Below are positions 1 to 64,000 of a stretch of 64,000 bases of DNA, piece after piece. A program made the position numbers and the translations under genes. Numbering within the stretch: the first letter of the stretch is position 1; each line of letters opens with the position of its first letter. Below the pieces are notes generated by a model. That model was given only the letters and a program-made list of their open reading frames with translations, made no database searches and was not told the origin of the DNA. The stretch covers positions 96,001-160,000 of the forward strand of contig CAWCXJ010000001.1 of the NCBI GenBank assembly GCA_963799485.1, written 5' to 3'. Source of the stretch: an uncultured Trueperaceae bacterium (lineage in GTDB: Bacteria > Deinococcota > Deinococci > Deinococcales > Trueperaceae).

Positions 1-64
1 GCTTACCTACGGTAAAATGAAACCGTTGATTCTATTGCGACAATGCACACAATCTCCCTGAACA

Positions 65-784
65 TTAAGGTTTGGTGAGTTTGAACAGCGCTAGTGCGAC
101 CGGCCCCCGGTACTCGGCACGCTCGAGCCCGAATCCCACCTTTTGCGCCCCCTGCTCGAGTTTTTCCGGGTCGATAAAACGGAGCCCCGACAGCTTGAGC
201 ACGCCTTGTCCCAGCCTGCCGGGCAAGCTCTGCGCGTTTGTCAAGTACATCTGCCACATCCGCCCGCCCGGTTTGAGTACCCGCGCAAACTCCGAGAGCG
301 TCCGGGATAAATCGGTAAACTCGTTGAGCGAGCCGCCGCAAACGAGCGCGTCGAACACGGCGTTGCGGTAGGGGAGACTTCGCACATCGGCCTGAACCAA
401 TACGGGCGAAACGCCGTCACGTTCAGCGTACGCTTGAGCTTTTTTGAGAAACGCTTCGCTAAAGTCGAGCGCGTGAACCTCGAGCCCCGGTTGATGTTGC
501 AAAAGCGTCCGGGCGTAAAGTCCGGCTGAGGTGGCCGCGTCCAAAATACGTTCACCCGGCCTCGGTTTAAGCTGTGCGAGCATCAGTTCCAACTCGCGCT
601 TGGTACTAAAACTGCCCCGCGTCAAGAGCGACAACGACCGTTTTCGCCAGAGCGGTTCGTACATGGCGGCGGTCAGGGGCCAAAAGTTGCTGCTCTGCGC
701 CAGCGGCACCCGCGGGCGTTTTTCTAAAGCCCGGTAGATGCCGCCCTTTTGCTCGAGCGGCCTTAGAAAGAGGGTGTCGGACAC
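65..784 (-). CDS. Class I SAM-dependent methyltransferase
   Basis: 239 aa; degenerate motif I (ILDAATSAG), ALDFSEAFL, QADVRSLPY..FD, EFARVLKPGGR. Confidence 0.85.
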   Translation of the reverse strand: MSDTLFLRPLEQKGGIYRALEKRPRVPLAQSSNFWPLTAAMYEPLWRKRSLSLLTRGSFSTKRELELMLAQLKPRPGERILDAATSAGLYARTLLQHQPGLEVHALDFSEAFLKKAQAYAERDGVSPVLVQADVRSLPYRNAVFDALVCGGSLNEFTDLSRTLSEFARVLKPGGRMWQMYLTNAQSLPGRLGQGVLKLSGLRFIDPEKLEQGAQKVGFGLERAEYRGPVALALFKLTKP

Positions 785-811
785 GAGTTCAGTGTGGCAC
801 GTTTACGGCGA

Positions 812-1999
812 CTAAAAAACGTCCTGCACCCAGCTGAGCTCACGTTCAATCGACGCGGTGAGGCCCAGTTTGAGCGCGTCGGGCAAGATGCTCCAGGTAT
901 ACGTTTCGACTTCAAAGTGTTCAGTCAAGGGTTTTTGACGGTGTAGCTCGAGCGTCCTTAAAATCATCTTTTGCGTCGTGTTGAAAGCTGTCGTCTGCGC
1001 CAAAAAAACCGGCACGTGAAAGTGCACCCGCCAGCGCTCGGCGTCCGGCTGGGGCAACGCAGCAAGCGCGCCGGGCAGGTCGGGAAAACGGGTCAGGGTG
1101 CCGCCCTTGTTTTTTTGAATAACCTGATGGAGATAAACGGGTTCGTTAAACGGTTCCAGTGCCCGCTTTGTCACCTCGGCGTTGTGGGGGGACAGCTCGA
1201 GCGCCGAACTCAGCTGCACCTTGCCGATGAGGATGCCCAGCGCCGTAAAATCGCTTAAGATTTCCGCCGGGTCTTCATAAGCGAGCGCAACGTGACAGGT
1301 ATCGAAACAGACCTGAATGTGCCGTAAAAGCGTTTCTTTCGCCTTTTTTACGGTAATGTTCAACCGCTCTGCCAGCCTTTCAGCCCCATAAGTCAGCAAC
1401 CAAGTCTCAAAAAACCGGGTGAGTTCAGCCATGTTCTCTAACAGGCCGCCCTGTTCGGGCTCGAGGTCTAGGTGAATCATGACCCCCCGCTCGGCGTACA
1501 ATTTAGCTAGATATTCCGCGACGCGCACGACGTTTTCAGTCAGCTGCCGCCAGGTCGCCGCGTCGCTTTCGTCAATCCACGCTTTATATGACAGTGGGCT
1601 CGTCGAAATCCCACCGGTGACGCCTTCGGGTAACAGCACGGCTAAACTCTGCGCCAACCGGAGCGTGTAATTCACCCGCTCATCAGAACGCCAGTCGGGG
1701 GCGTGAACCTGCGCTTTGACCGGCTGGTTGTGAAACGGCCCGTGCGGAAAACCGTTCATCGTAAAGACGTAAAGGCCGTTTTCATCCAGCCAGCGTTTGA
1801 ACCCCGTAAGGGTGTCGCCCGCTAAAAGTTCACGGCTCTCGTCGCCTGAAAGCCGCAGCCCGATACCGAAAGGTGCATTCGGGGAGAGGGACGCTTTGAG
1901 GGGTAGTGCGTGTTGTTTTAGGCTCTCCCAGACTTCGGGGAAGCCCCTGGCCGGATGGATGTTGGTGCAGTAGGTGAGGTGGCTACGTCCTAGTTTCAT
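812..1999 (-). CDS. eboE: EboE-family TIM-barrel protein
   Basis: HLTYCTNIHP, PFGIGLRLS, FTMNGFPHGPFH..VK..V..PDW, GKVQLSSAL, EPVYLHQV, WRVHFHVP, EVETYTW. Confidence 0.9.
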   Translation of the reverse strand: MKLGRSHLTYCTNIHPARGFPEVWESLKQHALPLKASLSPNAPFGIGLRLSGDESRELLAGDTLTGFKRWLDENGLYVFTMNGFPHGPFHNQPVKAQVHAPDWRSDERVNYTLRLAQSLAVLLPEGVTGGISTSPLSYKAWIDESDAATWRQLTENVVRVAEYLAKLYAERGVMIHLDLEPEQGGLLENMAELTRFFETWLLTYGAERLAERLNITVKKAKETLLRHIQVCFDTCHVALAYEDPAEILSDFTALGILIGKVQLSSALELSPHNAEVTKRALEPFNEPVYLHQVIQKNKGGTLTRFPDLPGALAALPQPDAERWRVHFHVPVFLAQTTAFNTTQKMILRTLELHRQKPLTEHFEVETYTWSILPDALKLGLTASIERELSWVQDVF

Positions 2000-2002
2000 A
2001 AA

Positions 2003-2221
2003 CTAGAGCGTAAACCCTAAAGCGGTACACCAGGCTATAAAAGCGAGATAAACCCAGACCAATCTCGGTATTTTCTGGTAGTTTGTACCGTTCATTTGAC
2101 GCATCTTTTGAACCGCCGAACTTGGATTTTTAACGACGCCCTTCGCTTCAGCTATCAGCAGGTTGACTAACAGATGAAAGAAAACCAAAGTCAGTGCCCA
2201 AAGAAATGTCTGCACCGTCAT
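2003..2221 (-). CDS. Small hypothetical membrane protein with two hydrophobic segments
   Basis: 72 aa; overlaps the DUF433 stop (ATGA) and ends 3 nt before eboE; locally lower GC. Confidence 0.5.
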   Translation of the reverse strand: MTVQTFLWALTLVFFHLLVNLLIAEAKGVVKNPSSAVQKMRQMNGTNYQKIPRLVWVYLAFIAWCTALGFTL

Positions 2222-2421
2222 AGCCCCCGTGCTGCAAAGTAAAGCGCTGCTCTGGTATCCTCGGTTTCCAAACCGGGCAGTTCTTCAGGTACCTGTTCCG
2301 GGCTGAGACCGGCAGCTAAAAGCCCCAACACATCCGATATGCGAATCCGCATCCCCCGAATGCGGGGACGCCCGCCGCACTGTTCCGGATTGATGGTGAT
2401 GCGAGTAAGCGCGTGAGCCAT
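2218..2421 (-). CDS. DUF433-domain protein (antitoxin-like), possibly degenerate
   Basis: RITINPEQCGGRPRIRGMRIRISDVL..LAAG.S.EQ pattern. Confidence 0.8.
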   Translation of the reverse strand: MAHALTRITINPEQCGGRPRIRGMRIRISDVLGLLAAGLSPEQVPEELPGLETEDTRAALYFAARGL

Positions 2422-2429
2422 AGCCCGGT

Positions 2430-3297
2430 TTAGCGTCCGGCGGCGTGGCTCGAGAGCGGTTCGCCCGTTTGCGGTGTGAACTCCAGTTTCGGCACTGAAA
2501 GCTTAAACTTCGGCGACTGCCCCAAAAACTCTGCTGGGTTATGCAGGATAATCTTTTCAATAAGTTTTTCGCTGTGCCCCCGGCGGCGCATCTCCAAGAC
2601 GAACTCGGGCACCGCGACCGGGTCGGACTCGCCCCAATCGCACGCCGACGCGACGACGATGCGCTCACTGCCGTACATCTCGAGCATGTCAATCGCCCGG
2701 TTCGGTGACGCTTTGGTTTTCGGATAGAGGGTCATACCTGTCCAAAAGCCATTATCTAGAATCATTCCGACGGTGTGCTCTTCGGCGTGGTCAACCATCA
2801 CCCGTTCGGGACGGACGCGTGGGTCGGCGGCGAGCGTTTCGACAATCGTTTTGGTGCCTTTGTACTTATCCTCGAGGTGCGGCGTATGAATGTGAATCAG
2901 CTGGTTATGCTCCAGACGCCAGTTCCACGTGGTCTCTAAACGTCGCCAACTCGTTGCGCGTCACCCGGTTGAGCCCGATTTCACCGATACCTAAAACCGT
3001 CTCGCGACCTAAAAACTCGGGGATGATTTTCAAGACTTCTCTGGTGAGTTCCCGGTCTTCGCCCTCTTTGGGGTTCAAGCAGAGCCAACAGTAGTGCTTG
3101 ATACCGTACTCGGCGGCCCGTGCGGGTTCAAAGGTCGTCAAGTGCTCGAAATAGTCGGCGAACACGTCGGCGCTGCGGCGGTCGTAACCGGCCCAAAACG
3201 CGGGTTCGGTGACAGCCAGGCAACCCGTCAGGGCCATCTGCCGGTAGTCGTCGGTGGTGCGCGAAACCATGTGCGCGTGCATGTCGATGTAGGTCAC
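2430..3297 (-). pseudogene. eboB: EboB/TatD-family hydrolase split by a +1 frameshift near 2916
   Basis: N-part [15 protein letters not shown]...GIGEIGL. Removing the A at plus-strand 2916 restores [24 protein letters not shown], in frame with ORF 2430-2801 ([18 protein letters not shown]). Confidence 0.85.
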
Positions 3298-3608
3298 CCT
3301 TCGCCCCCTTGCCGGATAGGCGCGCCGTAAGCCCCTTGCTGGTCGCGTTCTTCTAACAGTGAGGTGTCTAAGTCGCTGAGGAGCAGTTGCACGCGTTCGG
3401 CGCGACCAAAATCGCCCGTGGAGAGTTCGCGCAGAGCTTTTTTAAGCCCGACGAAGCGAAACTCGTCTTCGGCGTTTTTGTCGGCTGACCTGTCCATCCG
3501 GTCTAAAAAGGCGGCAATCGCCAGAACCTGATTGCGGTGTTCCATAAAGTAGCGGTCGATCAGTTCTTTTTGCCCTAACGGGCAGCTGCTGCGAACGTCG
3601 GTGTCCAC
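3294..3608 (-). CDS. Hypothetical protein in the ebo cluster
   Basis: 104 aa overlapping both neighbours; [21 protein letters not shown] reads as a real helical protein. Confidence 0.75.
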
Positions 3609-4792
3609 GGTTCCTCCTTTTGCTGTACTCGTTGTGACAGATAGTTTACGGCGTGCCGGACGAGCGTTTCATCGAGTTCGTGAACCTCCACGCCGCGCCC
3701 GACGCCTGCTAAAAGCATGATGGTGAGCTGCCCGCCTAAATGTTCGCGGAACTCACGGACGCCGTGAACGACTTCGGGGTTGGTAAGTTCCGGGACGAAG
3801 GTCTTAAGACCCAGCGTTGCAAAGACGTTTAAGATACGCTTCAGGTCGGTTTCTGAAAGCAAGCCCGACAGGTGCGCGTAGGTGCTGTCTAGCGCGATAC
3901 CGACGGCGACCGCTTCACCGTGCCGGAGTTGGTAAGCGGTGAGCGCCTCGAGCTTGTGCGCCGCCCAATGTCCAAAATCCAGGGGCCGCGACGAACCGAA
4001 CTCGAAGGGGTCGCCGCTCGTCGCAATATGCTCTAGGTGCAGCTCGGCGCAGCGGATGACGGCGTGCGCCATCGCCTCCCGGTCACGGTTTCGCAGATTT
4101 ACGGCGTTGGTCTCTAAAAAGCTGAAGAACGCGGCGTCTTTTAAGAGCGCGACTTTAATAGCTTCGGACAAACCGCCGACCCAGTCGCGCTGCGCCAGAG
4201 AGTCTAGAAAATTAAGGTCGTTGAGAACCGCAAAGGGCGGCGCAAACGTGCCTAAAAAGTTCTTTTTGCCAAAGGCGTTGACGCCGTTTTTAACCCCGAC
4301 TGCCGAGTCGTTTTGCGACAAGACGGTTGTGGGAACCCGCACGAGCCGCACGCCCCGGTGCGAGGTCGCGGCGGCGTATCCGACCATATCGAGGAGTGCG
4401 CCGCCGCCGACGGCGATAATAAACGAATGCCGGTCGATACCGTAGCGCTCGACCGCCTGTTGAATCAAGGTGACGTTTTCAGGCGTGTTCTTCGTCTCTT
4501 CGCCGCCTGCTATGACGAGGGGAGCGGTGACAAGCTCGAGCCCTTTATACCCGTCAAAATACGCGGAAATCCGCTCGAGTAGACCCGGCTGGTGTCGCGC
4601 GAAACCCTCATCTATTACGACCAGAAGCCGTTTGGGGCCAGCGCCGGGTTGAGCGTCTGCCAGGAGTGTTTCGGCGAGTAAAGGCTGCTCTGCGGTCAAA
4701 AGGTTGCGGGTAAAATGAACGGGAAACGCGTAATTCACCACGACCCGCTGACGAATCGTATGCATGGTGTATGGTACCGAGTGCGTAAGCAC
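3575..4792 (-). CDS. eboD: EboD-type sugar-phosphate cyclase (3-dehydroquinate synthase-like)
   Basis: [64 protein letters not shown]; start may be ATG 4765. Confidence 0.88.
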
Positions 4793-4858
4793 TACACCTT
4801 AGCCCGTATCACATGAACCGGACTGTGAAGATCTGCCGTAAAAGCTCGACGCGAAAAC

Positions 4859-7006: not shown

Positions 7007-8437
7007 GTGGACACACTTGTTTTCGGTACCGACGGCTGGCGCGACATCATCGGCGAACGTTTTACCTTTGCAAACGTCTCGAGGGTCGCGCAGGCTTACG
7101 CGGCGTATCTGCACGACGCGGGCACGCCGAGCGTCGCCGTCGGTTACGACACCCGCTTTAACGGGGCACTTTTCGCGCGGCGGGTCGCCGAGGTATTCGC
7201 CGCCAACGGCGTCCGGGTATTCCTGACTGAAAATTACCTGCCGACGCCTGCGCTCTCGTTCGCCGTAAACCACTTGACACTCGGCGGCGGCGTGATGCTC
7301 ACGGCGTCGCACAACCCGCCGCCGTACAGCGGCTTCAAGCTCAAGGGGCCGTATGGCGGCACGGCGACCGAAGCCATCTATAAAGATGTGAGCGCCCGCG
7401 TCGCCGAAACCGACCCGGACGACGTGCTTGGCTTTGACGAGAAAAAACACGTGCTGGAAACGCTCGACATCCGCGCCGCCTACTACGACGCGCTGAGCCA
7501 GCTTGTTGACCTTGACTTGCTCCGCACCTTTACCGGCACGCTTGCTCACGACGCGATGGGCGGCGCGGGCTCAGGCTGGCTAAAAGGCTTTGCCGAATAC
7601 GCCGGGCTGCCCTTGACCGTGCAGGAGCTGCGCGGCGACCCGACCCCGATGTTTTACGGCGTCAACCCCGAACCGCTGCCGCAAAACCTCGCCTCGACGA
7701 TGGACTTTATGAAGCGTTCGGACGCTGTATTTGCCGCTGCTACCGACGGCGACGCCGACCGGCTCGGGTTGGCGCTGCCGGGTGGGACGTTTTTCAACTC
7801 GCACCAGATTTTAGCGGTGCTGCTCAGTTCGCTTTACGACAAAGGGGGTCGTGGGCGGGTCGTCAAAACCTTTACGACCTCGAGGGTTGTCGAACGGCTC
7901 GCCGAAAAACGCGGTCTGGAGGTGCTCGAGACCCCCGTCGGTTTCAAATACATCGTCGACGCGATGCTCGCGGGTGACGTGCTGATCGGCGGGGAAGAGT
8001 CGGGCGGGATTGGCGTACAAGGCCACATCCCCGAACGCGACGGGCTCGCGAATACGCTTTTGATGCTCGAGGCCACTTTGCGCTCCGGTAAAAGCGTCGC
8101 CGAACTGTTCGCGGCGCTGGAACAAGAAGCCGACTGGCAGCACGCCTACGACCGAGTAGATTTGCAGCTCTCCGGTAACGCGCTTAAAGACGCCGTACTG
8201 AACGCGCTCAAAAATCCCCCTGAAGCGTTCGCGGGCCGCAGAGTCGAATCGGTCGAAACTTTAGACGGCGTAAAGTTCAATCTTTCCGGCAAAGCGTGGC
8301 TGCTCTTCCGCGCGTCGGGCACCGAGCCGGTGCTGCGTATCTACTGCGAGGCGCAGTCGGAAGCCGACGTCGCAGACATTTTGAAGGCGGGGCAGGCGTT
8401 TGTCGCCGAGATAGAAGCAATGAGAAGAAAGCAATGA
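7007..8437 (+). CDS. Phosphoglucomutase/phosphomannomutase family protein
   Basis: FGTDGWR, TASHNP, DGDADR, GGEESGG, RASGTEP. Confidence 0.95.
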   Translation: MDTLVFGTDGWRDIIGERFTFANVSRVAQAYAAYLHDAGTPSVAVGYDTRFNGALFARRVAEVFAANGVRVFLTENYLPTPALSFAVNHLTLGGGVMLTASHNPPPYSGFKLKGPYGGTATEAIYKDVSARVAETDPDDVLGFDEKKHVLETLDIRAAYYDALSQLVDLDLLRTFTGTLAHDAMGGAGSGWLKGFAEYAGLPLTVQELRGDPTPMFYGVNPEPLPQNLASTMDFMKRSDAVFAAATDGDADRLGLALPGGTFFNSHQILAVLLSSLYDKGGRGRVVKTFTTSRVVERLAEKRGLEVLETPVGFKYIVDAMLAGDVLIGGEESGGIGVQGHIPERDGLANTLLMLEATLRSGKSVAELFAALEQEADWQHAYDRVDLQLSGNALKDAVLNALKNPPEAFAGRRVESVETLDGVKFNLSGKAWLLFRASGTEPVLRIYCEAQSEADVADILKAGQAFVAEIEAMRRKQ

Positions 8438-11154: not shown

Positions 11155-14716
<3,562 letters not shown>

Positions 14717-14720
<4 letters not shown>

Positions 14721-27377: not shown

Positions 27378-27486
27378 GCCCCGGTTTTGCAAGCACCGTA
27401 AAACGTCGCGGCAACCCGTTAGGTGCCGCTGGCTGGGCTTTTATTTGGGTGTGGGGCTGAAGTCAGGACTGCTGCTTGACTCGAGC

Positions 27487-28098
27487 CTACGGCGTAAAGC
27501 CAAACGTCGTTTCGACAACGCCCGGTAAAACGCGGTAGATAGAGCGCCCTATAGCCGCCTCCATCTCCGCTTGAACACCGAACAAAGCCCGCCATTTCGA
27601 GACGGTCAGCGTGTCTACGCCGTAGCGTAGCGCCACGTCCAGACACCGTTTTTCGATCAAGCAGACCCCTTCGGGAAGTGCAAGTGCGTCGCAAAGTTGA
27701 ATGAGTCTGTCGTAAGGGGTATAGGTTAAACTCATGAGATAGGTTTCAGCCATACTCAGTTCGGTTTCGGTGCAGTCCCAGCTGCCGAAAACAGCGTAGA
27801 TATCTTGTAGCGGGTGGGAATGGGTCAAACAGATACGCGCCGCATCTTCGTAACCCAAATTGTGCAAGAACGTATACCCGTCGAGCGTGTGCCGCATGTT
27901 TGTAACGCCCTCTTGTCTACCGATGTCATGGAGCAAACCCAGGATATAGGCGCTTCCGGGCTCTAGCTGTGGATGCACTTCAGCAAGGTGACGGGCAGCC
28001 AGCGCTACGTTGCGAGAATGCGCTACCCAAGGGCCGGGATTTCTCGCTTCGGCCTCGTCTAAAAGCTTCTCTGCTTCGGCTAATGTAGGAATATTCAT
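27487..28098 (-). CDS. HD-domain metal-dependent phosphohydrolase
   Basis: WVAHS, GLLHDIGR, ICLTHS, QLCDAL. Confidence 0.85.
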   Translation of the reverse strand: MNIPTLAEAEKLLDEAEARNPGPWVAHSRNVALAARHLAEVHPQLEPGSAYILGLLHDIGRQEGVTNMRHTLDGYTFLHNLGYEDAARICLTHSHPLQDIYAVFGSWDCTETELSMAETYLMSLTYTPYDRLIQLCDALALPEGVCLIEKRCLDVALRYGVDTLTVSKWRALFGVQAEMEAAIGRSIYRVLPGVVETTFGFTP

Positions 28099-28115: not shown

Positions 28116-28146
28116 AAAAAAATGCCCCCTCGAGCCTCGAGGGGGG
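28116..28146 (-). terminator. Intrinsic terminator after the BMP gene
   Basis: CCCCCTCGAG/CTCGAGGGGG stem with an adjacent A7 run (U tail on the minus strand). Confidence 0.75.
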
Positions 28147-28169
28147 TTAAACTCTCTCGTTCTAAAGGT

Positions 28170-29312
28170 TTACGGCTCGTCGGGCCACGGCCCCTCGACA
28201 CCTTCCACAGCCCACTGCATACTCGTCAAATCACCGACGCTCATCACTGCGCCGTCAGCGACGACCTCGTTACCCTTACGGTCGGTCAGCGGCCCGCTAA
28301 AGGGTTCAAAGGCGGGCGGGTCTTGCGACATCTGCCCCAAGCGTTTCATCACCAGGTCGTAAACCGAAATCTCGCCGAGTTCGCTGTCTTCCACAGATTT
28401 AGCCTTGAGCGCGTCCGTAAACACCGGATTGATGACCGTACCGACGTCCGCGCCGGTTTCGACTGCGCCGCTCGCCAAGAGCGACCAGTAGTCCACGGCT
28501 TCCATGTTTTGCGGCGTATAGGTGCCGTCGCGAATTTTGGTCAGGATGTCGCGGTAGATTTTGTCCCAGTGGACGATCTGCCCGGAAACCACATAATCGG
28601 GGGCAAACGCAAGCATCGGCGAGTAGTGCCCGAAGCTCGGCAATTTGTTCCGCGCGGCGACCTGCACGACGGTAGCGGTATCTTCGGTAAAGGCGAACAC
28701 GTCTACCCCGTCGGCGACAAGCGCCTGCGTCGCCTCGGTCGCGGCGACGGGGTTATAAAAAGCGTTAAGCCAGCGGACGCTGACGGTCGCGTCCGGGTTG
28801 ACCGCGCGCGCACCCATGGTAAAGGCGTTGATGTGCCGTTTGATCTCGGGGATAGGAACGGAACCGACGTAACCAAGTTTGCCACTCTCGGACAGCGCAC
28901 CCGCCATGAGGCCGTTTAGGTAGTAGATTTGGTAAAACTCGGCGGTGTAGGTCGCCACGTTCGGCGCACGCATAAAGCCGGTAGCGTTGGCAAAAATTAC
29001 CTCCGGATAGCGGGCGGCGGCGGCTAGGGTCGCGTCCATAAAACCAAAACTCGTCGTGAAGATGACGTTCGCGCCCTGATTTACGAGCTGGTCGATAAAA
29101 ACTTCCGCGTCGGCTTCGGGCACCGATTCAACCGCGATGGTGTCCAACCAATCAAATTCGTCGTCGAGCATTTGCCGCGCCTGGTCGTGCGCCTCTGTCC
29201 AGCCGTTGTCGTCGGTCGGGCCGACGTAGATAAAGCCGGCGGTGATCTTGTCTTGCTGGGCCAGCGCAAAAGTAAAAATTGCGAGAAAAATCAGAACCGA
29301 AAAACGCCGCAC
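28170..29312 (-). CDS. BMP-family (purine/nucleoside) ABC substrate-binding protein
   Basis: GFIYVGP.DD.GWT.AHDQAR, IFTTSFGFMD, INAFTMGA..VNP; signal peptide; GGAGG before GTG 29312. Confidence 0.92.
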   Translation of the reverse strand: MRRFSVLIFLAIFTFALAQQDKITAGFIYVGPTDDNGWTEAHDQARQMLDDEFDWLDTIAVESVPEADAEVFIDQLVNQGANVIFTTSFGFMDATLAAAARYPEVIFANATGFMRAPNVATYTAEFYQIYYLNGLMAGALSESGKLGYVGSVPIPEIKRHINAFTMGARAVNPDATVSVRWLNAFYNPVAATEATQALVADGVDVFAFTEDTATVVQVAARNKLPSFGHYSPMLAFAPDYVVSGQIVHWDKIYRDILTKIRDGTYTPQNMEAVDYWSLLASGAVETGADVGTVINPVFTDALKAKSVEDSELGEISVYDLVMKRLGQMSQDPPAFEPFSGPLTDRKGNEVVADGAVMSVGDLTSMQWAVEGVEGPWPDEP

Positions 29313-29504
29313 GTAGACCTCCTGGGGAGACTCGAGGAAAAGACTCGAGTCCACTTTGGTCAGTATATGAAGTTATCGGGCATGACTGCAATCGTCTGTG
29401 CGAACATAAAGCTATTTTGCTCCTGACACTTTGCTGCGTTCTGGTACGTTATACCGTAAAAAATCCCTGATTGACGCTTTGATGTGCTTTTGCTACCGTA
29501 CAGT

Positions 29505-30539
29505 ATGTCTTTGACCGATGTTGAAATTACGGGTGCTCGAGCCGAGTCCGAGCGTCTCAAACCCGGCGCTGGCGACCCGGTGCTAGCGCGGCAGTGGATG
29601 GCCTTGGCCCGCAGCGAAGACGTTACCGATGAACCTTTACGCGCTGAACTTTTAGGTGAAGCAGTCGTCCTGTGGCGAAGTGAAACGGGTTTGAGAGCGT
29701 TTCGTGACCTCTGCATCCACCGGGGGGCAGCCCTGTCGCTCGGGCGGGTCGAGGGCGGCGAGCTGGTCTGTCCGTATCACGGCTGGCGTTACGGCGAAGA
29801 CGGCGCGTGTACGAAGATTCCGGCGCAACCTGCCGGGGCGAAGGTGCCGACGAAAGCGTGGGCGCTCACCTACGCGTGTGAAGAGCGTTACGGGCTCGTT
29901 TGGGTGGCGTTGGGGGCCCCTGAAACCGAAGTTCCTGTTTACGCCGAGGCCACTGAACCCGGTTTCTATACCCTCAGCGTCGGCCCCTATACGTTAAATG
30001 CCGAACCGCCCCGCGTCATCGAAAACTTTCTAGACGTGTCGCACCTCATGTGGGTCCACGAAGGCTTGTTGGGCGTCCCCGACTACGCCGAAATCCCCGA
30101 CCACCACGTCTACCGCGTCGGCAACACGCTCCGCAGCGACCCCATCGACATCTTTCAACCCGACCCCGACGGACGCGGCAAGGCGCTCACCAACCGTTAC
30201 GTCTACGAGGTTTTAGCCCCAACCACCGCCCGCTTCCGCAAAACCGACCCGGACACCGGCGAGGTCTTTTCGATGCTCCTGCACGCGACGCCGACCGCCG
30301 CAGGGGAGACGCTTGCCTACGCGCTCTTGTCGCGCAACTACGATTTGGACGCTTCTGATGAGACGTATATCGACTTTCAGAACACGCTGATGGCACAGGA
30401 CAAACGCATTATCGAGTCCCAGCGCCCGGAAAATCTGCCTTTGGATTTGCAGGCCGAGTTGCACCTCAAGTCGGACAGGTTGGCGATTGCGTATCGTAAG
30501 TATCTGAACGAGTTGGGAGTAGAAAGAGGAACCGCGTAG
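29505..30539 (+). CDS. Rieske non-heme iron oxygenase (VanA/Ndm-like demethylase group)
   Basis: CIHRGA...CPYHGW; ENFLDVSHLMWVH; leaderless promoter TTGACG-17 nt-TACCGT before ATG 29505. Confidence 0.92.
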   Translation: MSLTDVEITGARAESERLKPGAGDPVLARQWMALARSEDVTDEPLRAELLGEAVVLWRSETGLRAFRDLCIHRGAALSLGRVEGGELVCPYHGWRYGEDGACTKIPAQPAGAKVPTKAWALTYACEERYGLVWVALGAPETEVPVYAEATEPGFYTLSVGPYTLNAEPPRVIENFLDVSHLMWVHEGLLGVPDYAEIPDHHVYRVGNTLRSDPIDIFQPDPDGRGKALTNRYVYEVLAPTTARFRKTDPDTGEVFSMLLHATPTAAGETLAYALLSRNYDLDASDETYIDFQNTLMAQDKRIIESQRPENLPLDLQAELHLKSDRLAIAYRKYLNELGVERGTA

Positions 30540-38130: not shown

Positions 38131-40041
38131 GTGCCGCAACTCCAGCAGGCCGGGGAGTCCCGGATACCGATTAAGGCGAGCCTTAACACTCGAGCCTTCT
38201 TTTTAGTCGCCGTCACCTTGTTGCTGAGTTCGTGCAGCACGCTTTTAGGTGATGAGGCGCTCGAGTCCGCACGCTACCGCAGTCGCAGCAACGACCTCGG
38301 ACCCAACGTCACGGTCTTCGACCCGGGTATGCCCGTAAGCGAAATCCAAACCATCCTCGACGCCACCTACGCGCAGCAAGTCGACAACGAAATGGGTAGT
38401 GCGCGTTACGCTTATCTCTTTAAGCCCGGCACCTACGGTACCGACGAAGCGCCGCTACAGATCAAGGTCGGTTACTACACCGAGATTTCCGGCTTGGGCG
38501 CGTCACCCGGTGACGTAACGATCAACGGCAAGATCGAGGTCTACAACCGCTGCCTAGGGGATGACGGCACGAGCAACTGCATCGCGCTCAACAACTTCTG
38601 GCGCACGCTTTCAAACCTCACGGTAAACATAAATGCGAAAGATCAGGACGGTTGCCGCGCCTCCGCCAACTTTTGGGCCGTGTCACAGGCGGTCTCGGTA
38701 CGCCGCGTCGATGTTAGCGGTGGTACCTTCTCGCTGATGGATTACTGCACGGCGGAGCCTCGGTTTGCCAGTGGTGGCTATATTGCCGACACGCGCGCCG
38801 AGACGATTCTCAACGGCTCGCAGCAGCAGTGGTTTACCCGCAACAGTACGGTTGGTGAATGGACGAACGGCGTATGGAACCAGGTATTTGCGGGCGTCGA
38901 GGGTGCGCCGGACGATGCGGGATTTCCCGACCCGCCCTACACGGCCCTCGAGACCACGCCGGTCAGCCGCGAAAAGCCGTACCTGTTCGTTGACGGGCGG
39001 GGTAAGTACAACGTCCGTGTGCCTGCTGCACAGACAAATACCCGCGGCATTTCATGGGATGAGGGCATGACCCGGGGCCGCACGGTTCCGCTCGGCGAGT
39101 TCTTTATCGCGCGACCGTCGGACTCGGTGCAGACCATCAACAACGCGCTTGCCCGCGGCAGAAACTTGCTCCTTACACCGGGCGTCTACGACATTGCCAA
39201 AACCATCAAGGTCAAGCGCGCAGATACGGTTGTGCTGGGTATCGGGCACGCAACCCTCAAAGCGGTCGGCGGCGCTGTCCCTATGGAGGTGGCTGACGTT
39301 CCCGGCGTGGTGATTGCGGGCGTCACGGTTGACGCCGGGAGCGAACTGTCCCCGGTGCTTTTACGGGTTGGTAAAAAGAACGGCAACCGCAGCCCTAAAA
39401 AGAGCGGCGCGGCTAACCCGACCACGCTCTCAGACGTGTACTTCCGCGTAGGTGGCCCGTACGTCGGCAAGACGGTCGTGGCCCTCGAGGTCAACAGCGA
39501 CTTTGTTCTTATCGACCACACCTGGGTCTGGCGCGCCGACCACGGTATCGAAGGCTTTACCGAGGGCGTCAACGGCGACACCGAACGCTGGAACACCAAC
39601 TTGGGGCGCAACGGTGCCGTCATAAACGGCGACAACGTGACGGCGACGGGTCTTTTCGTCGAGCATTTCCAGGAGTACAACACCATCTGGAACGGCGAGA
39701 ACGGTACGACGATTTTGTACCAGAACGAGCTGCCGTACGACCCACCGACACAAGCTGATTGGATGAACGGCGACACGCTCGGCTGGGCCGGGTACAAGGT
39801 TGCCGACGACGTAAAGTCACACAATCTTTACGGCGGCGGCGTCTACGTGTTTAACCAGAACAATCCGGCTATCGTTACGGAGAACGGCTTTGAAGTCCCG
39901 GTGACGCCGGGGGTTCGGCTCGAGCACATCCTGACGGTTAATCTAGGCGCAGGTACCATCGAACACGTGGTCAACGGCGTGGGGGGGCAAGTTGACAACA
40001 GCAATACCGGAACCCCAGCTTATGTGCTGAACTACCCGTAA
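38131..40041 (+). CDS. GH55-like exo-beta-1,3-glucanase lipoprotein
   Basis: Lipobox LLSSC; LFKPGTYG, ALNNFWR, WAVSQA, SQQQW, LLLTPGVY, WRADHG, GLFVEHFQ, QNELPYDPP as in actinobacterial GH55. Confidence 0.8.
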   Translation: MPQLQQAGESRIPIKASLNTRAFFLVAVTLLLSSCSTLLGDEALESARYRSRSNDLGPNVTVFDPGMPVSEIQTILDATYAQQVDNEMGSARYAYLFKPGTYGTDEAPLQIKVGYYTEISGLGASPGDVTINGKIEVYNRCLGDDGTSNCIALNNFWRTLSNLTVNINAKDQDGCRASANFWAVSQAVSVRRVDVSGGTFSLMDYCTAEPRFASGGYIADTRAETILNGSQQQWFTRNSTVGEWTNGVWNQVFAGVEGAPDDAGFPDPPYTALETTPVSREKPYLFVDGRGKYNVRVPAAQTNTRGISWDEGMTRGRTVPLGEFFIARPSDSVQTINNALARGRNLLLTPGVYDIAKTIKVKRADTVVLGIGHATLKAVGGAVPMEVADVPGVVIAGVTVDAGSELSPVLLRVGKKNGNRSPKKSGAANPTTLSDVYFRVGGPYVGKTVVALEVNSDFVLIDHTWVWRADHGIEGFTEGVNGDTERWNTNLGRNGAVINGDNVTATGLFVEHFQEYNTIWNGENGTTILYQNELPYDPPTQADWMNGDTLGWAGYKVADDVKSHNLYGGGVYVFNQNNPAIVTENGFEVPVTPGVRLEHILTVNLGAGTIEHVVNGVGGQVDNSNTGTPAYVLNYP

Positions 40042-40087: not shown

Positions 40088-40170
40088 TACGTCGGGAAGA
40101 CGCATAATCTGACGGGTTTGGGGGTGGCTCGAGCGCAAATACTCAGCTCGAGCTTACAAGTCGGTGTCGT

Positions 40171-40636: not shown

Positions 40637-41488
40637 CTACTGCCCCCGAAACTCCGCCGCCCGCTTCTCCAAAAACGCGCTCGTCCCCTCTTTGGCGTCT
40701 TCGGTCAACAGCGCCATCCCGAACAGGTCGGCCTCGACCTCGAGCCCCTGACTCAAACCCAAATCCAGGCCGCGCACCACGGCCTCTTTGGCAAGCCCGA
40801 GTGCGACCGGTGCATTTTTCAGGGTGAGACGGGCGAGGTCTAAAGCGCCTTCTAAAGCGTCCTCAACCACCCGGTTGACGAGCCCCATCTGCAGCGCTTC
40901 GTCCGCACCGACGTGTCTCCCCGTAAAAATTAAATCGAACGCCCGCCCCTGACCGATCAGCCGCGGTAAGCGCTGCGTACCGCCGTAACCGGGAATTAAA
41001 CCGAGGCCGACTTCAGGCAGGCCGAGTTTTGCCGTGTGACTAGCAACGCGCAGGTCGGCGGCTAAGGCCAGCTCGAGCCCGCCCCCGAGCGCAAACCCGT
41101 TGACAGCGGCAACCGTCGGGATGGGTAGCGCCGCCAGGGTGTTCATCACGTCTTGTCCGGCTAACGCACTCTCACGTCCGCTAAAGCCGTCCGTGGAACC
41201 CTGAAGCCCGGCAATGTCGGCCCCCGCCGCAAACGCCCGCCCGCTCCCGGTAATCACGAGCGCCCGCACGCCGAGGTCGGCCTGCGCCAGCTCAAAGGCA
41301 ACCCCGAGCTCATATAAAACCTGCGCGTTCAGGGCGTTGAGCGCGTCGGGCCGGTCGATGGTGATAACTGCGACGCCACCGTCAACGTCGAAACTCAGCG
41401 TCTCGAGCTCCGAAGTAAGGTCTTCAAGCTCGAGGTCATCGTGCTCGTGCAAATGCTCGTGTTCGTCGTGACTGTGGGTATCGCTCAC
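40637..41488 (-). CDS. Enoyl-CoA hydratase (crotonase family)
   Basis: RPDALNAL, AFAAGADI, ALGGGLEL, PEVGLGLIPGYGGTQRL; His/acidic N-terminal tail. Confidence 0.93.
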   Translation of the reverse strand: MSDTHSHDEHEHLHEHDDLELEDLTSELETLSFDVDGGVAVITIDRPDALNALNAQVLYELGVAFELAQADLGVRALVITGSGRAFAAGADIAGLQGSTDGFSGRESALAGQDVMNTLAALPIPTVAAVNGFALGGGLELALAADLRVASHTAKLGLPEVGLGLIPGYGGTQRLPRLIGQGRAFDLIFTGRHVGADEALQMGLVNRVVEDALEGALDLARLTLKNAPVALGLAKEAVVRGLDLGLSQGLEVEADLFGMALLTEDAKEGTSAFLEKRAAEFRGQ

Positions 41489-58161: not shown

Positions 58162-58174
58162 CCGGGGGCCTTTT

Positions 58175-58214: not shown

Positions 58215-58408
58215 TAAACGCGTAGCTTGCAATCTTTACGCCTCAGCTTTACGCCCTCAAACATCCCTAAAGCGCTGCGCCTGAGCCAAGTTTGTTAAAC
58301 TGCCCTTGCGAAACGCCTTACCGCCCGAGCTATCGGCGGTCACAGCCCCCCGTTTCGCCTGTACAGCTGATCTGACGGGTAACTAGGTAGGCAATATGGC
58401 ACACGCAC

Positions 58409-60057: not shown

Positions 60058-60070
60058 ACCAGTCGGTAGA

Positions 60071-60487
60071 TTATATCCAGCCGGATTCGCCGAACCACAC
60101 GCCGTTAATAAGATGATGCTCCAACGCCCGCCTCACAAACGGAACCATATTATGCGGCAGCGCAGCAAAAGCACACCGGCGCAGGTCGTCACATTCAGCT
60201 TCGGCAACAGGCTCCCCTTGCCAGCGCTCGGCCCGTAAAAAGAAGTCGATGCCGCCCCCTATAGGCGAGGTGTAGTGCGTTACGCCGATGACTGTCAGAG
60301 CGCTGGGCTCGAGCCCAACCCCAACTTCTTCCCAACATTCCCGCATTGCTGTTTGAACGATGGTTTCACCGGGTTCCAGGTGTCCCCCGACCGGGCCGTA
60401 ATTGCCGTCTTCAAAACCGGTAGCTTTACGGCGGGCAAGCAACACGGTGTTCTCACGAATCAGAAACACGTGAGCGACGACCGGCAA
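60071..60487 (-). CDS. Nudix hydrolase
   Basis: GGHLEPGETIVQTAMRECWEEVG. Confidence 0.88.
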   Translation of the reverse strand: MPVVAHVFLIRENTVLLARRKATGFEDGNYGPVGGHLEPGETIVQTAMRECWEEVGVGLEPSALTVIGVTHYTSPIGGGIDFFLRAERWQGEPVAEAECDDLRRCAFAALPHNMVPFVRRALEHHLINGVWFGESGWI

Positions 60488-60488
60488 C

Positions 60489-61994
60489 CTAACCGCGATA
60501 CTCGCCCCACTCGAGCCTCAACACCCCACAAACTTCGCCGAGCGTCGCCCCCGCACGAAACGCCGCCAGCACAGAAGGAAAAAGGTTTTCCGAGTCCCGT
60601 AAAACCGCCTTCAGACCCGCCAAAGCCTCGTCGGTCGCCCTTTGGTCACGGTTTTTACGGTAGCTCTGGACTTCACGAACCCGCGCCCCTTCGGTTTCTG
60701 CCGATAGCTCCTGCACCGGCACGCCCTCTTCTTTCTCCAGCCGAAACCGGTTGACCCCGACGACGATGCGCTCGTCTCGTTCAATCTCGCGCTGAAACCT
60801 GAACGCCGCCTCTTCGATCTCTTCCTGGATAAACCCGGCTTCAATCGCCTTGACCGAACCGCCCAAATCCTCCACTTGCTGCATCAGGGTGAGGGCGTCC
60901 TGCTCCAACTTGTCCGTCAAGGCTTCAATGACGTAGCTCCCGCCCAACGGGTCGGGTTCACTCGTCACACCCGACTCATACGCCAAAATCTGCTGCGTCC
61001 GGAGCGCTACCCGCGCCGAACGGTCGGTCGGCAGCCCCAGCGCCTCGTCCATCCCATTTGTATGCAAAGACTGCGTACCGCCCAGCACTGCTGCTAATGC
61101 CTGATACGCCGTCCGGACGATGTTGTTTTCCGGTTGCTGCGCGGTCAAGGTGCTGCCGCCCGTCTGCGTGTGAAAACGTAGCTGCTGCGCCCGGATGTTG
61201 CCGCCGAACTCGCCCTGCATAATGTGCGCCCACAGCCGCCGCGCCGCCCGGAACTTGGCGACCTCTTCTAAAATATTGTTGTGGCAGGCAAAAAAGAACG
61301 ACAAACGGGGGGCGAAAGCGTTGACCTCGAGCCCCGTCGCCAGCGCCGCCCGCACATACGCCCGCGCATTTGAAAGCGTAAACGCAAGCTCCTGCGCCGC
61401 CGTCGCGCCTGCCTCACGGATGTGATACCCCGAAATCGAAATCGTGTTCCAGTTCGGGACGTGTTCGGCGCAGTAGGCGAACATATCGGTAATCAGCCGC
61501 ACCGAAGGCTCCGGCGGATAGATATAGGTGCCTCTTGCGATGTACTCCTTCAAGATGTCGTTTTGCACGGTGCCGCCGAGTTGGTCGCTGCTCACGCCCT
61601 GTTCTTCGGCGACCAGGATGTAAAGCGACAAGAGCATCATCGCGGGCGCGTTGATAGTCATTGAAGTGGTAACTTCTCCGAGCGGAATGTCTTTGAAAAG
61701 CCGCCGCATATCGTCCAGCGTGGCAATCGATACGCCGACCCTGCCGACTTCGCCCTTGGCGAGGGGGTCGTCCGGGTCTAAGCCGAGCTGGGTGGGCAGG
61801 TCAAACGCGACCGATAAACCGGTGGTGCCCTGCCCCAAGAGATAACGGTAACGGGTGTTCGATTCCTCCGCGGTGCCGAAACCGGCGTACTGACGCATCG
61901 TCCATAAGCGGCCCGCTGAGTACATCTGCGGATAGATGCCGCGCGTGTAGGGGTACATACCGGGGCGCTCGAGCTTATCTTTTTCGGCTGTCAT
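60489..61994 (-). CDS. Methylmalonyl-CoA mutase, substrate-binding subunit (no B12-binding domain)
   Basis: [47 protein letters not shown]. Confidence 0.95.
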
Positions 61995-62044
61995 ACGCTA
62001 ATTATAGGTGCCGCAGACCCCTCGAGATAAAGTACAACGGCAAT

Positions 62045-62461
62045 TCAGGAACCGGCGACAAGGTAAACAGCGACACCTGCCAAAGCGATACCCAGAACTT
62101 TACGCAGCGTGACCGGCTCACCCGAAAAAAAGCCCAAAACCGAACTCAGCACGATAAAAAGCCCGAAGATAGGCACGACGACGCTCACCGCGCCGAGCGA
62201 CAGGGCGCGGTAGTAACTTGCAATCCCGACCGCCAGAAATGCACCCGCTAGATAAGCGTTCCAGGCAGCCGGATGTGTAAACCCGCGCAGGCTGAGCGAA
62301 CCCGTAAAAATAGCAATCAGCAGCGAACCGAGAACAAGCATTACCGACGTGATAAGAAGTACTAAAAACTCCGGCATTCCGCCGCCGATAGCGCGGCTCA
62401 CAAAAGGTGCGACGAATGAATACGCAAACATGGCGACGAGCACCCAGAGAACAGCTGACAT
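62045..62461 (-). CDS. Single-domain EamA/DMT transporter
   Basis: YYRALSLG.VSVVVPI, GEPVTLRKVLGI; GGAGG RBS. Confidence 0.85.
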   Translation of the reverse strand: MSAVLWVLVAMFAYSFVAPFVSRAIGGGMPEFLVLLITSVMLVLGSLLIAIFTGSLSLRGFTHPAAWNAYLAGAFLAVGIASYYRALSLGAVSVVVPIFGLFIVLSSVLGFFSGEPVTLRKVLGIALAGVAVYLVAGS

Positions 62462-62627
62462 ATCAGCCTCCTGTAGCTAAGCACAAGCCGAAGGTCCGGC
62501 TGTACGCCTAACTTTATCTTTTAGGGGGCGCGAGCGTAGCTTTCTGGCAATCACAGTTGACGACTTTATCAGGACTCGCGCATGTTCTTTCGTTGACTGT
62601 TAAAACCAATATGGTAGCCTGCCGCTC

Positions 62628-63824
62628 ATGTCGCCGCGTACTTTTTTAGCCCTCCTCGCCTTTTTGGCCTTTATCAGCCTGGGCCTGCCCGACGGCCTGT
62701 TGGGGGTCGCGTGGCCTTCGGTTCGGGGTAGCTTCGGCTTGCCACTCGACGCGCTCGGGCTCTTGTTAGCGTTTAGTACAGCAGGCTATTTGACCTCGAG
62801 CTTTCTCAGTGGGCGTATTTTACGGGTGTTGCCTATCGGCAGTGTTCTGGCACTTTCAACAGCGGCGGCGGCAACGGCTCTTTTGGGCTACGCGCTGACC
62901 CCCTTCTGGCCGCTGATGCTCGTTCTCGGCTTTTTAGGCGGGCTCGGCGGCGGCGCGGTCGATGCGGGGCTCAACGCTTACGGCGCGACACATTTTAACG
63001 CCCGCATCCTCAACTGGTTGCACGCCTTCTTCGGCCTCGGCACCACGGCGGGGCCGCTTATCGTCACAGCGGTCTTAAACGCCGGATTCGTCTGGCGCTG
63101 GAGCTACGCACTGGTCGGCAGCGCGCAGGCGCTTTTGGCTCTCACCTTTTTTCTGACGCGGGGGCGCTGGTCGCAGGTGACCGAGACCACCTCGGAAGAT
63201 GCACCGCCTGTAGCGGCGCGTACCCGCGACACGTTGGGCCGCCCGCTCGTCTGGCTCGGGATGCTGGTCTTTTTCGTCTATACCGGCGTCGAACTCGTGG
63301 CCGGGCAGTGGAGTTATTCGCTGCTCACTTTGGAGCGTGGCGTCGCAGCGGGTGCAGCGGGGGTCTGGGTGAGCCTTTACTGGGGTGGGCTGATGCTCGG
63401 GCGGGTGTTGTTCGGCATTATCGCCGACCGGGTACCGCTGACGCAGACGTTGCGCGTTTGTATGCTGGCGACCGCAGTCGGGGCAACGCTGTTTTGGCTC
63501 GAGCCCACCCGCTTTTTGTCCCTCGCAGGTCTCGTGATGATTGGGTTCTTTTTAGCACCTATCTTCGCCTCGCTCATCAGCCTGACTCCGAGCCGGGTCG
63601 GGCGCACCCACGCGGACAGCGCTATCGGTTTTCAGATTGCAGCGGCGGGACTCGGCGGGGCCACCCTGACGGGGCTTGTCGGGGTTGTCGCGCGTGCGCT
63701 CGGGCTCTGGGTTGTCGGCGCGTCGCTGCTCTTTTTTACGCTGCTGCTTTTGGGGCTTTACGAGGTGCTGCTGAGGGTCAAACCGAACGCTGTCCCGACA
63801 CCGACACCAACTCAGTCTTCGTAA
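62628..63824 (+). CDS. MFS transporter
   Basis: AFISLGLPDGLLGVAWP, GAVDAGLN, NWLHAFFGLG; about 12 TM segments. Confidence 0.92.
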   Translation: MSPRTFLALLAFLAFISLGLPDGLLGVAWPSVRGSFGLPLDALGLLLAFSTAGYLTSSFLSGRILRVLPIGSVLALSTAAAATALLGYALTPFWPLMLVLGFLGGLGGGAVDAGLNAYGATHFNARILNWLHAFFGLGTTAGPLIVTAVLNAGFVWRWSYALVGSAQALLALTFFLTRGRWSQVTETTSEDAPPVAARTRDTLGRPLVWLGMLVFFVYTGVELVAGQWSYSLLTLERGVAAGAAGVWVSLYWGGLMLGRVLFGIIADRVPLTQTLRVCMLATAVGATLFWLEPTRFLSLAGLVMIGFFLAPIFASLISLTPSRVGRTHADSAIGFQIAAAGLGGATLTGLVGVVARALGLWVVGASLLFFTLLLLGLYEVLLRVKPNAVPTPTPTQSS

Positions 63825-63864
63825 ACGGCCTTGTTTAGCTCCCCGGGACGCTTACACTGAGTTT

Positions 63865-64000
63865 ATGTTGCCGCCGACCGTTGTCAGCTCTTCCGTCTCG
63901 AGTTCTGAAGTGCGCAAGCTGCCCTTTTCGGGACGTTTAGGAGAACGCGCCCTTTACGTCTATCTGCCCCCCGATTATCACGACCCGGACGCGCAAGGGG
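63865..64000 (+). CDS. Putative esterase, 5' part only (runs off the window)
   Basis: TACACT 6 nt before ATG; LGERALYVYLPPDY motif. Confidence 0.65.
   Translation, partial: MLPPTVVSSSVSSSEVRKLPFSGRLGERALYVYLPPDYHDPDAQG

Follow-up and report, generated by a model that had tools for sequence, protein, structure and literature searches.

Why does one six-base palindrome, CTCGAG, recur so often in a 64-kb stretch of a Truepera genome, and does it recur as a word of the DNA itself or as a reflection of the proteins encoded there? The stretch in question (G000:C1:96001-160000, hereafter the window, meaning all 64,000 bases of it) belongs to an assembly, G000, of 3,655,195 bases in 15 contigs with about 59% G+C (GC), and its assignment to Truepera (Trueperaceae, Deinococcota) comes from PheT, which is 88% and 82% identical to its counterparts in two genome records of Truepera sp. 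A preliminary description, made from the letters of the window, had proposed that CTCGAG is a highly iterated palindrome (HIP) and more than the Leu-Glu codon pair; both parts of this proposal were borne out, the word being in excess in all three reading frames as well as between genes. CTCGAG is a DNA-level, actively maintained and evenly spread iterated palindrome, a counterpart of the cyanobacterial HIP1, and it is neither a coding by-product nor a repeat family. According to recent abstracts, HIPs have been known in cyanobacteria for about three decades and their function is still debated, and the passages on HIPs in Elhai 2015 (PMC4390886) treat them in cyanobacteria only.

In the window, CTCGAG occurs 135 times, compared with 21.79 +/- 4.67 copies (maximum 31) in 100 dinucleotide-preserving shuffles, none of which reaches 135. 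The manual estimates of about 26 copies in 1-10 kb and about 21 in 10-20 kb agree exactly with the site list (26 and 21), and the background that had been put at about 3 per 10 kb is 3.4 when computed. In the whole genome, the word is present in 7252 copies (1.98 per kb, with 1.5-2.1 per kb on each contig) and ranks first of the 4096 hexamers, both by count and by its observed/expected ratio, which is 6.2, 5.9, 4.7, 3.3 and 1.48 under Markov models of order 0, 1, 2, 3 and 4, respectively; the runner-up, GATGAT, reaches 3.9 at order 1. The majority of other six-base palindromes are depleted in this genome. GAGCTC, in which the codons CTC and GAG are reversed, has 551 copies genome-wide (0.49 of the order-1 expectation), and the HIP1 core CGATCG has 172 (0.13); the word of this genome is not the HIP1 octamer GCGATCGC. 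At 39 unrelated PheT loci, the pooled CTCGAG ratio is 0.74. An Rfam scan of the 64-kb window returned no matches.

One explanation of such an excess lies in coding: the word would arise jointly from a preference for the codons CTC and GAG, from a Leu-Glu dipeptide that is itself favoured and from a codon-pair (translational) bias. Every frame statistic used to weigh it rests on crude gene calls from our own caller (long open frames scored by codon usage; 3411 genes, 85.5% of the genome coding), whose starts are possibly over-extended, so that the intergenic set is conservative. The explanation accords with the 5108 of the 7252 sites (70%) that lie in the frame CTC|GAG (frame 0), with the abundance of CTC (38,075 of about 124,000 Leu codons) and GAG (32,444 of 65,417 Glu codons), and with a Leu-Glu dipeptide found at 1.23 of expectation (Glu-Leu, 1.04); furthermore, in the 18 sampled genomes of another genus of the phylum (g38), CTCGAG is about as frequent as GAGCTC, as codon usage alone predicts. 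However, 304 sites lie in the frame xCT|CGA|Gxx (frame 1), 914 in xxC|TCG|AGx (frame 2) and 911 between genes, with a further 11 in gene overlaps and 4 at gene boundaries. Synonymous-codon shuffles within genes (n=30) yield on average 1527, 42.6 and 234 sites in frames 0, 1 and 2, which leaves excesses of 3.35-, 7.25- and 3.93-fold (z = 101, 54 and 41). The off-frame sites named in the preliminary description were found as claimed, those at 7078, 7879 and 13619 in frame 2 and those at 29536, 37587 and 38189 in frame 1.

The dicodon-preserving check that had been suggested as a possible refutation did not remove the excess. A null of this type fixes the in-frame count by construction and is informative for off-frame sites only; these exceed the dicodon-chain expectation in both frames, with 309 against 142 for xCT CGA Gxx and 921 against 396 for xxC TCG AGx. 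Stated by context, the base that follows the codon pair xCT|CGA is G in 309 of 346 cases, and the codon pair TCG|AGx is preceded by xxC in 921 of 1071. Intergenic DNA shows an excess as strong as that in genes, with 911 sites in 528,836 bases of 53.6% GC (1.72 per kb; 6.6 times the order-1 and 5.7 times the order-2 expectation), and gaps no longer than 150 bases, which are unlikely to hide a gene, have 180 sites in 89,879 bases, a ratio of 8.2. Two of the three intergenic pairs listed earlier, 28129/28136 and 40128/40147, do lie between genes, whereas the third, 29331/29344, falls within the possibly over-extended 5' end of the gene called at 28170-29354 and its class is uncertain.

The choice of codons points the same way. 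Leu-Glu can be written with 12 codon pairs, and 5118 of the 9590 Leu-Glu pairs (53%) are CTC-GAG, where 1458 (15%) are expected; the alternatives CTC-GAA, CTT-GAG and CTG-GAG stand at 0.15, 0.28 and 0.34 of expectation. GAG-CTC, made of identical codons and encoding Glu-Leu, reaches only 0.36. The density of CTCGAG does not rise with codon score, being 1.7-2.2 per kb across all codon-score classes and flat along genes. Additionally, the Trueperaceae relative G025 has the excess at 39% GC, where CTC is rare (394 of 6505 Leu codons): frames 0, 1 and 2 hold 89, 56 and 19 sites against expectations of 13.9, 11.3 and 1.2, and intergenic DNA holds 13 against 1.0. Because the excess persists off-frame, intergenically and in codon-pair contexts, coding is refuted as the sole cause; the frame shuffles, the intergenic ratio, the dicodon chain and G025 together rule out the codon-pair explanation in that form, and we regard a purely coding origin as very improbable.

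How far the sites persist between genomes was examined against a congener, G111 (88% PheT identity), of which 400 kb at 56.5% GC were taken. These 400 kb contain 813 CTCGAG (2.03 per kb) and 58 GAGCTC, and the excess in G111 again extends to all frames (567, 44 and 106 sites in frames 0, 1 and 2 against 171, 8.1 and 21 expected) and to intergenic DNA (95 against 19). In an alignment with this one relative, comprising 134 non-overlapping segments and 240,333 aligned positions at 81% identity, 320 of 497 aligned CTCGAG sites (64%) are kept in G111. No other of the 912 hexamer classes that occur 100 times or more reaches this value, their median being 32% and their 99th percentile 52%. Retention exceeds the class means of 30-32% in frame 0 (264 of 399), frame 1 (7 of 19), frame 2 (37 of 56) and intergenic DNA (12 of 22). 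At 551 conserved Leu-Glu pairs, moreover, G111 keeps the CTCGAG spelling in 83.5% of cases; among 207 common codon pairs, whose median synonymous retention is 49%, this is the top value. These comparisons show that existing CTCGAG sites are actively maintained.

The sites share little beyond the six bases themselves. A weak palindromic flank is common to all four classes, with G at -1 in 47-53% and C at +6 in 46-54% of sites; at -2 and +7 the preferred bases reach about 40% or less, and beyond two bases on either side composition is at background, without a longer consensus. A dispersed repeat family of the repetitive extragenic palindrome (REP) or miniature inverted-repeat transposable element (MITE) type was rejected, because the flanks are diverse and the most frequent 10-mer, GGCTCGAGCC, covers merely 231 of the 7252 sites. 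The arrangement along the chromosome is unusually regular: neighbouring sites are 502 bases apart on average, and the coefficient of variation of this spacing, 0.935, is below that of every other hexamer among the 60 commonest (1.011 or more). Counted in bins of 5 kb and 20 kb, the sites have variance-to-mean ratios of 0.93 and 0.94; eleven other common hexamers lie at 1.36-3.28. Close pairs are scarce relative to an exponential expectation (0.18 below 10 bases; 0.67 at 10-20 bases), the widest gap between neighbouring sites measures 4667 bases, and nowhere in the genome do six or more sites fall within 300 bases.

Very-short-patch repair by the Dcm/Vsr system enriches CCWGG in Escherichia coli. 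The present case is similar in that a methyltransferase target (as recorded in relatives, see below) is over-represented and its near-cognates are depleted, and a neutral directional repair or conversion of this kind, turning near-cognates into CTCGAG and restoring mutated sites without serving any function, would fit several observations. The excess is independent of frame and equally strong between genes; it extends uniformly to every gene class, the least native-looking genes among them, and to each of the 15 contigs; the near-cognate synonymous spellings of Leu-Glu are depleted; and where G000 and G111 differ at a site, the other genome usually has a word separated from CTCGAG by two or three steps, such as TTGGAG or TTGGAA, and not a one-step neighbour, as if such neighbours were short-lived. 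In Table S3 of Blow et al. (2016; PMC4752239), the rows for 5-methylcytosine (m5C) enzymes with CTCGAG specificity from Nocardia and Rhodopseudomonas are paired with Vsr-type 'V.' genes. Several points oppose this explanation. No Vsr-family gene (PF03852) was found in G000, which is 99.99% complete, in a search whose control was positive in 3 of 14 reference genomes. The enzymes recorded from Deinococcota make N6-methyladenine (m6A), which does not give rise to a mismatch by deamination. One-mismatch variants of CTCGAG are depleted only mildly (0.56-1.49 genome-wide at order 1; 0.61-1.09 in intergenic DNA), and no single variant is strongly depleted, so that the depletion anticipated in the preliminary description exists in its mild form only. 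Among these variants, no deamination product stands out: TTCGAG/CTCGAA stands at 0.67 at order 1 (0.51 at order 3; 0.71 intergenically) and CTTGAG/CTCAAG at 0.94 (0.87 intergenically). Furthermore, Leu-Glu positions written otherwise in G000 carry CTCGAG in G111 at 23% and remain without it in 77%, and the scarcity of close pairs is not what blind conversion predicts. Enrichment by Vsr itself was therefore rejected on the absence of PF03852 and the ratios of the deamination-product variants, and we consider directional repair of a more general kind, as in the earlier suggestion of a repair-driven word, unlikely.

The preliminary description had called the word lineage-specific, which is right in substance and too narrow in extent. 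CTCGAG is present in all 41 sampled Trueperaceae genomes (a count that includes the unpublished G033) at 0.29-2.6 per kb in whole-genome counts. Samples of 1-20 kb were taken from 38 relatives, all of the 40 except G033 and G038; among them, GC ranges from 37 to 75% and the composition-based ratio from 1.3 to 12.6. Among other Deinococcota, the excess recurs in several Thermaceae-like genera: the word reaches 1.4-3.4 per kb in genera g39, g41 and g42 (9, 2 and 1 genomes) and 1.7-2.9 per kb in the four genomes of family f4. It is missing from the Deinococcus-like genus g37, whose 32 genomes are depleted, with 37-942 copies per 2.8-4.8 Mb. Across the phylum sample, CTCGAG density spans about 260-fold. 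GAGCTC is often far rarer than CTCGAG among Trueperaceae. As a separate observation, two members of the family show extreme avoidance of GAGCTC, the SacI word: G032 has 73 GAGCTC and 8868 CTCGAG in 4.2 Mb, and G035 has 62 and 6990 in 4.5 Mb.

CTCGAG has several features in common with HIP1. HIP1 is a short palindrome with about 500-2500 copies per Mb (PMC4390886 and PMC5861425, in the parts that give its abundance), and CTCGAG has 1984 per Mb; both lie far above composition and low-order Markov expectations, CTCGAG more weakly than HIP1. Like HIP1 as described there, CTCGAG is found in every frame as well as intergenically (by the crude gene calls used here), its sites are conserved between genomes beyond background (here against one relative, over 240 kb), and its distribution is non-random and even, seen for CTCGAG as sub-Poissonian spacing in an assembly of 15 contigs; for HIP1, a periodicity of 10-90 kb is reported. 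In the passages of the literature concerned, HIP1 is linked to methyltransferases without a restriction partner, as is CTCGAG in relatives of this genome. The differences lie in the word and phylum, in its length of six letters instead of eight, and in the associated chemistry, since in relatives the recorded mark is m6A at the adenine of CTCGAG, whereas in the HIP1 passages it is m6A at GATC combined with m5C or N4-methylcytosine (m4C) at CGATCG. A six-base case is not without precedent, as Elhai 2015 (PMC4390886) also gives GGCGCC in Calothrix among its examples. Nocardia offers another comparison: in the passages of Blow et al. (PMC4752239) devoted to it, CTCGAG is recognised by a conserved orphan methyltransferase, as in Deinococcota, but that enzyme is of the m5C type and the sites cluster between dnaA and dnaN. 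Clustering of this origin type was rejected here, as no locus has six or more sites in 300 bases and the sites are evenly spread.

The link to methylation rests on enzymes documented in the same phylum. Table S3 of Blow et al. (2016; PMC4752239) contains rows for active type II m6A enzymes with the motif 'cTcgAg' and an empty cognate-restriction-enzyme column in three Deinococcota species, namely M.Mru1279II of Meiothermus ruber DSM 1279 (Mrub_2385; 99.5% of sites detected), M.Mch9957IV of M. chliarophilus (MeichDRAFT_0814; 94.1%) and M.Mhy14884I of Marinithermus hydrothermalis (Marky_0034; 94.6%). A hyper-abundance of CTCGAG is not reported in the passages and supplement rows of that paper concerned with these enzymes. 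A preprint (10.64898/2026.06.24.734251) mentions methylation at CTCGAG and TCGA that is shared in a group from hot springs; the part relevant here does not state the phylum of that group. In our sample, the genome G054 encodes a gamma-class enzyme of 553 residues that is letter-identical to WP_024050458.1, named by NCBI from M. ruber, and shares a cluster with a 518-residue form from DSM 1279; judged from these sequences, WP_024050458.1 is probably Mrub_2385. This bearer of the M. ruber enzyme shows the CTCGAG excess in all frames (376, 33 and 49 sites in frames 0, 1 and 2 against 104, 1.6 and 12 expected) and in intergenic DNA (24 against 3.4). Full-length orthologues of 48-52% identity occur in the Trueperaceae genomes G023 (a member of the same genus, Truepera), G028 and G025, with a partial one in G004. 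The documented target is the same word in the same phylum, and the enzyme's orthologues reach into Truepera.

The methyltransferase complement of G000 itself comprises two type I HsdM-like proteins, an MmeI-like protein, a 1084-residue N6/N4 enzyme, two prophage-borne C5 enzymes and one gamma-class adenine methyltransferase with Eco57I and M_Eco57I_C domains, hereafter the Truepera type, which sits on contig C6 among housekeeping genes with no endonuclease gene seen adjacent. The Truepera type occurs in 24 of the 41 Trueperaceae genomes and in 6 of the 9 genomes of g39, and is 25% identical to the M. ruber type over full length. Within g39, all nine genomes carry exactly one of the two gamma-class types (M. 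ruber type in 3, Truepera type in 6, none with both). G083 supplies a third enzyme, a member of the M.TaqI family that matches the solved structure at an expectation value (E) of 1e-126; an exact look-up of this protein found no match in the protein collection, perhaps owing to the start codon chosen. In the 32 CTCGAG-poor genomes of g37, no orthologue of any of the three types was found: two types had no match at all, and the third, the Truepera type, had one weak match of 26% identity, its only match outside the family and g39 in any sampled group. As an observation on its own, M.TaqI-family orthologues with 53-58% identity to the G083 enzyme are present in 18 of the 18 genomes of g38 and thus represent a genus-wide conserved adenine methyltransferase. 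The Truepera-type family is also very large, with more than 1300 proteins at E <= 1e-100 and members that stay above 50% identity across records from Thermaceae, Planctomycetes and Pyrinomonadaceae, which suggests a horizontally spread enzyme that may have one conserved, unnamed specificity.

With this background, we give an even chance to the reading that CTCGAG is kept as a methylation mark. The word would be methylated on its A (CTCGm6AG) by methyltransferases without a recorded restriction partner, and a lineage-specific reader would use the mark at about one site per 500 bases; candidate readers include a repair strand signal, a 'self' tag for recombination or transformation, and a nucleoid protein. 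Selection would then keep existing sites, and near-cognate words would be short-lived. For G000, a recent nonsense codon in the sole homologue could mean that the mark is perhaps unwritten now while the word persists.

A considerable number of observations weigh against this reading. In G000, no orthologue of the M. ruber type is present (the best match is the C6 gene, a pseudogene, at 29% identity and E 9e-13), and no M.TaqI-type orthologue was found. The C6 gene, a distant paralogue of the M. ruber-type enzymes (25-29% identity) and the sole related gene in the genome, has an internal TGA where its relatives have Arg or Gln, and the rest of it matches G111's intact copy at 78% identity. Public reads did not reach the codon: the best runs contain no more than 0.11 of the sampled words, and the nearest piece starts one base past it. 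Searches put no name to the specificity of the Truepera type, and its homology to solved enzymes appears weak: M.TaqI (TCGA) and M.BseCI (ATCGAT) are matched in the catalytic domain only, at E 0.002-0.003, protein searches gave generic names only, and NCBIfam had no family above its cut-off. G023 carries both the Truepera and the M. ruber types, which speaks against identical specificity. Among Trueperaceae, which as relatives are not mutually independent, the excess does not differ significantly with possession of the Truepera type (median composition ratio 4.76 in 21 bearers and 4.41 in 17 other genomes; p=0.23) or of either type (medians of 4.81 in 24 bearers and 4.09 in 14 others; p=0.12), and in the CTCGAG-rich genomes G105, G068 (g41), G065, G095 (g40) and G103 (g45) none of the three enzymes had a match. 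On 46 metagenome contigs with a Truepera-type homologue, there is no CTCGAG excess outside the gene (pooled ratio 1.05, 247 against 235.9; median 0.76; only 2 of 46 exceed 2). M. silvanus is without CTCGAG methylation in the table of Blow et al. (PMC4752239). The ratio of about 6 found here is small beside those of HIP1, given as 55-228 in the table of Elhai (PMC4390886) and as 15-300 in the corresponding passage of Xu 2018 (PMC5861425). Finally, high site retention is also expected from a strong directional repair bias, and conservation is no proof of selection.

The absence of an excess in other bearers, together with the null associations, indicates that a methyltransferase does not suffice by itself; any role for methylation would require a lineage-specific reader. 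The earlier idea of a methylation-driven word is favoured by the m6A CTCGAG enzymes of three Deinococcota species and their orthologues in the family, and disfavoured by the nonsense codon in the sole homologue of G000 and by the lack of significant tracking; the proposed search for a methyltransferase succeeded in relatives, where orthologues of the documented CTCGAG enzyme exist, and in G000 itself led to a gene interrupted by TGA. As for a restriction partner, the XhoI-family endonuclease domain PF04555 had no match in G000, but the control matched 0 of 14 reference genomes, and the search is hence uninformative.

The same observations bear on a further alternative, in which CTCGAG, weakly extended to GCTCGAGC, is a protein-binding or self-recognition word that acts independently of methylation, either as the site of an abundant, lineage-specific DNA-binding protein such as a nucleoid or condensation factor or as a 'self' tag in DNA uptake or recombination, these lineages being naturally transformable. 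Coverage is even and sub-Poissonian with no gap above 4.7 kb, the sites are conserved, and the palindromic flank preference (G at -1, C at +6) is found in all classes; lineages that yielded no match to any of the three methyltransferases have the excess too, and the density in G000, where the homologue is broken, equals that in G111, which has an intact copy. Conversely, no candidate reader was identified in G000, and no locus gathers sites into a cluster. DNA uptake signals (uptake signal sequences, USS, and DNA uptake sequences, DUS) have 9-12 bases and a non-palindromic core, and often stand as inverted pairs behind genes. CTCGAG, with a palindromic core of six bases and weak extension only, is short for such a signal, and the role of an uptake sequence was rejected on these grounds; a separate non-palindromic word of the same genome, CCGTAAA/TTTACGG, fits an uptake-like tag better. 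We hold a methylation-independent binding or recognition word to be improbable.

Returning to methylation, a wider version of that reading can be offered tentatively, and we think it doubtful in this full form: CTCGAG might be a phylum-level 'self' mark of the Deinococcota outside Deinococcus, long kept through genomes of 37-75% GC, methylated to m6A by interchangeable partnerless methyltransferases (at least three distant gamma-class lineages replacing one another) and read by a lineage-specific machine. Deinococcota are known for massive recombinational repair and transformation. Possible readers would accordingly include strand discrimination in a mismatch repair that lacks MutH, or guidance of recombinational repair and transformation. 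If this were true, it would represent a second independent origin of HIPs, in cultivable genera, that could be used to learn what HIPs are for.

Literature searches found no paper reporting a CTCGAG excess in Deinococcota. New here are the Truepera case itself, its spread to cultured genera, the tie to recorded methyltransferases, the either/or pattern in g39, the broken copy and the negative association tests. A second, independent case would show that HIPs are not a cyanobacterial oddity, and the documented m6A methyltransferase in cultured relatives (Meiothermus, Marinithermus) makes the function of a HIP testable. There are practical consequences as well. XhoI, which cuts at CTCGAG, cleaves CTCGAG-rich genomes about every 500 bases; CTCGAG content provides a strong compositional signature for binning metagenome-assembled genomes (MAGs) of Trueperaceae and related groups; and the pressure for the word shapes codon choice, through the single codon pair that takes up about half of all Leu-Glu pairs, and slightly shapes protein sequence.

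Features referred to in the text; positions are those of the window unless a contig of G000 is named.
Feature	Position	Strand	Details
CTCGAG sites of the window (135)	1..64000	.	frame CTC GAG 99; frame xCT CGA Gxx 5; frame xxC TCG AGx 17; intergenic 14
Off-frame example (xxC TCG AGx)	7078..7083	+	gene called 7007-8437; (7078-7007) mod 3 = 2
pheT (phenylalanyl-tRNA synthetase beta chain)	12309..14720	+	Pfam; CTCGAG at 12429, 12684, 12852, 13619; placement marker
Two intergenic sites 7 bases apart	28129..28141	.	in G+C-rich inverted repeat ccccCTCGAGcCTCGAGgggg; between genes called 27487-28098 and 28170-29354
Off-frame example with rare Arg codon CGA (xCT CGA Gxx)	29536..29541	+	gene called 29484-30539
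Intergenic pair of GCTCGAGC sites 19 bases apart	40128..40152	.	between genes called 38131-40041 and 40637-41488
Gamma-class adenine methyltransferase, Truepera type	C6:26002-27654		internal TGA at C6:27442-27444
C5 methyltransferase	G000:C2:20460-21548
C5 methyltransferase	C3:35865-36923

Some further features of the window and genome were noted alongside. At window positions 28116-28150, a G+C-rich inverted repeat follows an A-run (aaaaaaatgccccCTCGAGcCTCGAGggggg) between two minus-strand genes, with its two CTCGAG copies in stem and loop; the arrangement looks like a terminator. The two C5 methyltransferases are 65% identical to each other, their best solved relatives are 8yf3 and M.HaeIII, and each lies amid small genes of low codon score on a contig of lower GC, surroundings that look like prophage. 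Several palindromes are nearly absent from G000, namely TTTAAA (22 copies; order-1 ratio 0.03), GGCGCC (210; 0.07), GTTAAC (68; 0.08), CGGCCG (284; 0.08) and GGATCC (53; 0.09), and codon pairs containing GGACC or GGTCC stand at 0.07-0.08 of expectation; the near-absence of several palindromes looks like the footprint of restriction systems. The genome also has a second hyper-abundant word, the non-palindromic TTTACGG(CG) with its reverse complement CCGTAAA, seen in the window at about 27480-27510, for example. TTTACGGC and its complement total 1752 copies, about 6.7 times the order-2 expectation, of which 1011 are sense, 489 antisense and 252 intergenic; no replication-strand bias is visible on four large contigs, and G111 has 148 copies per 400 kb.

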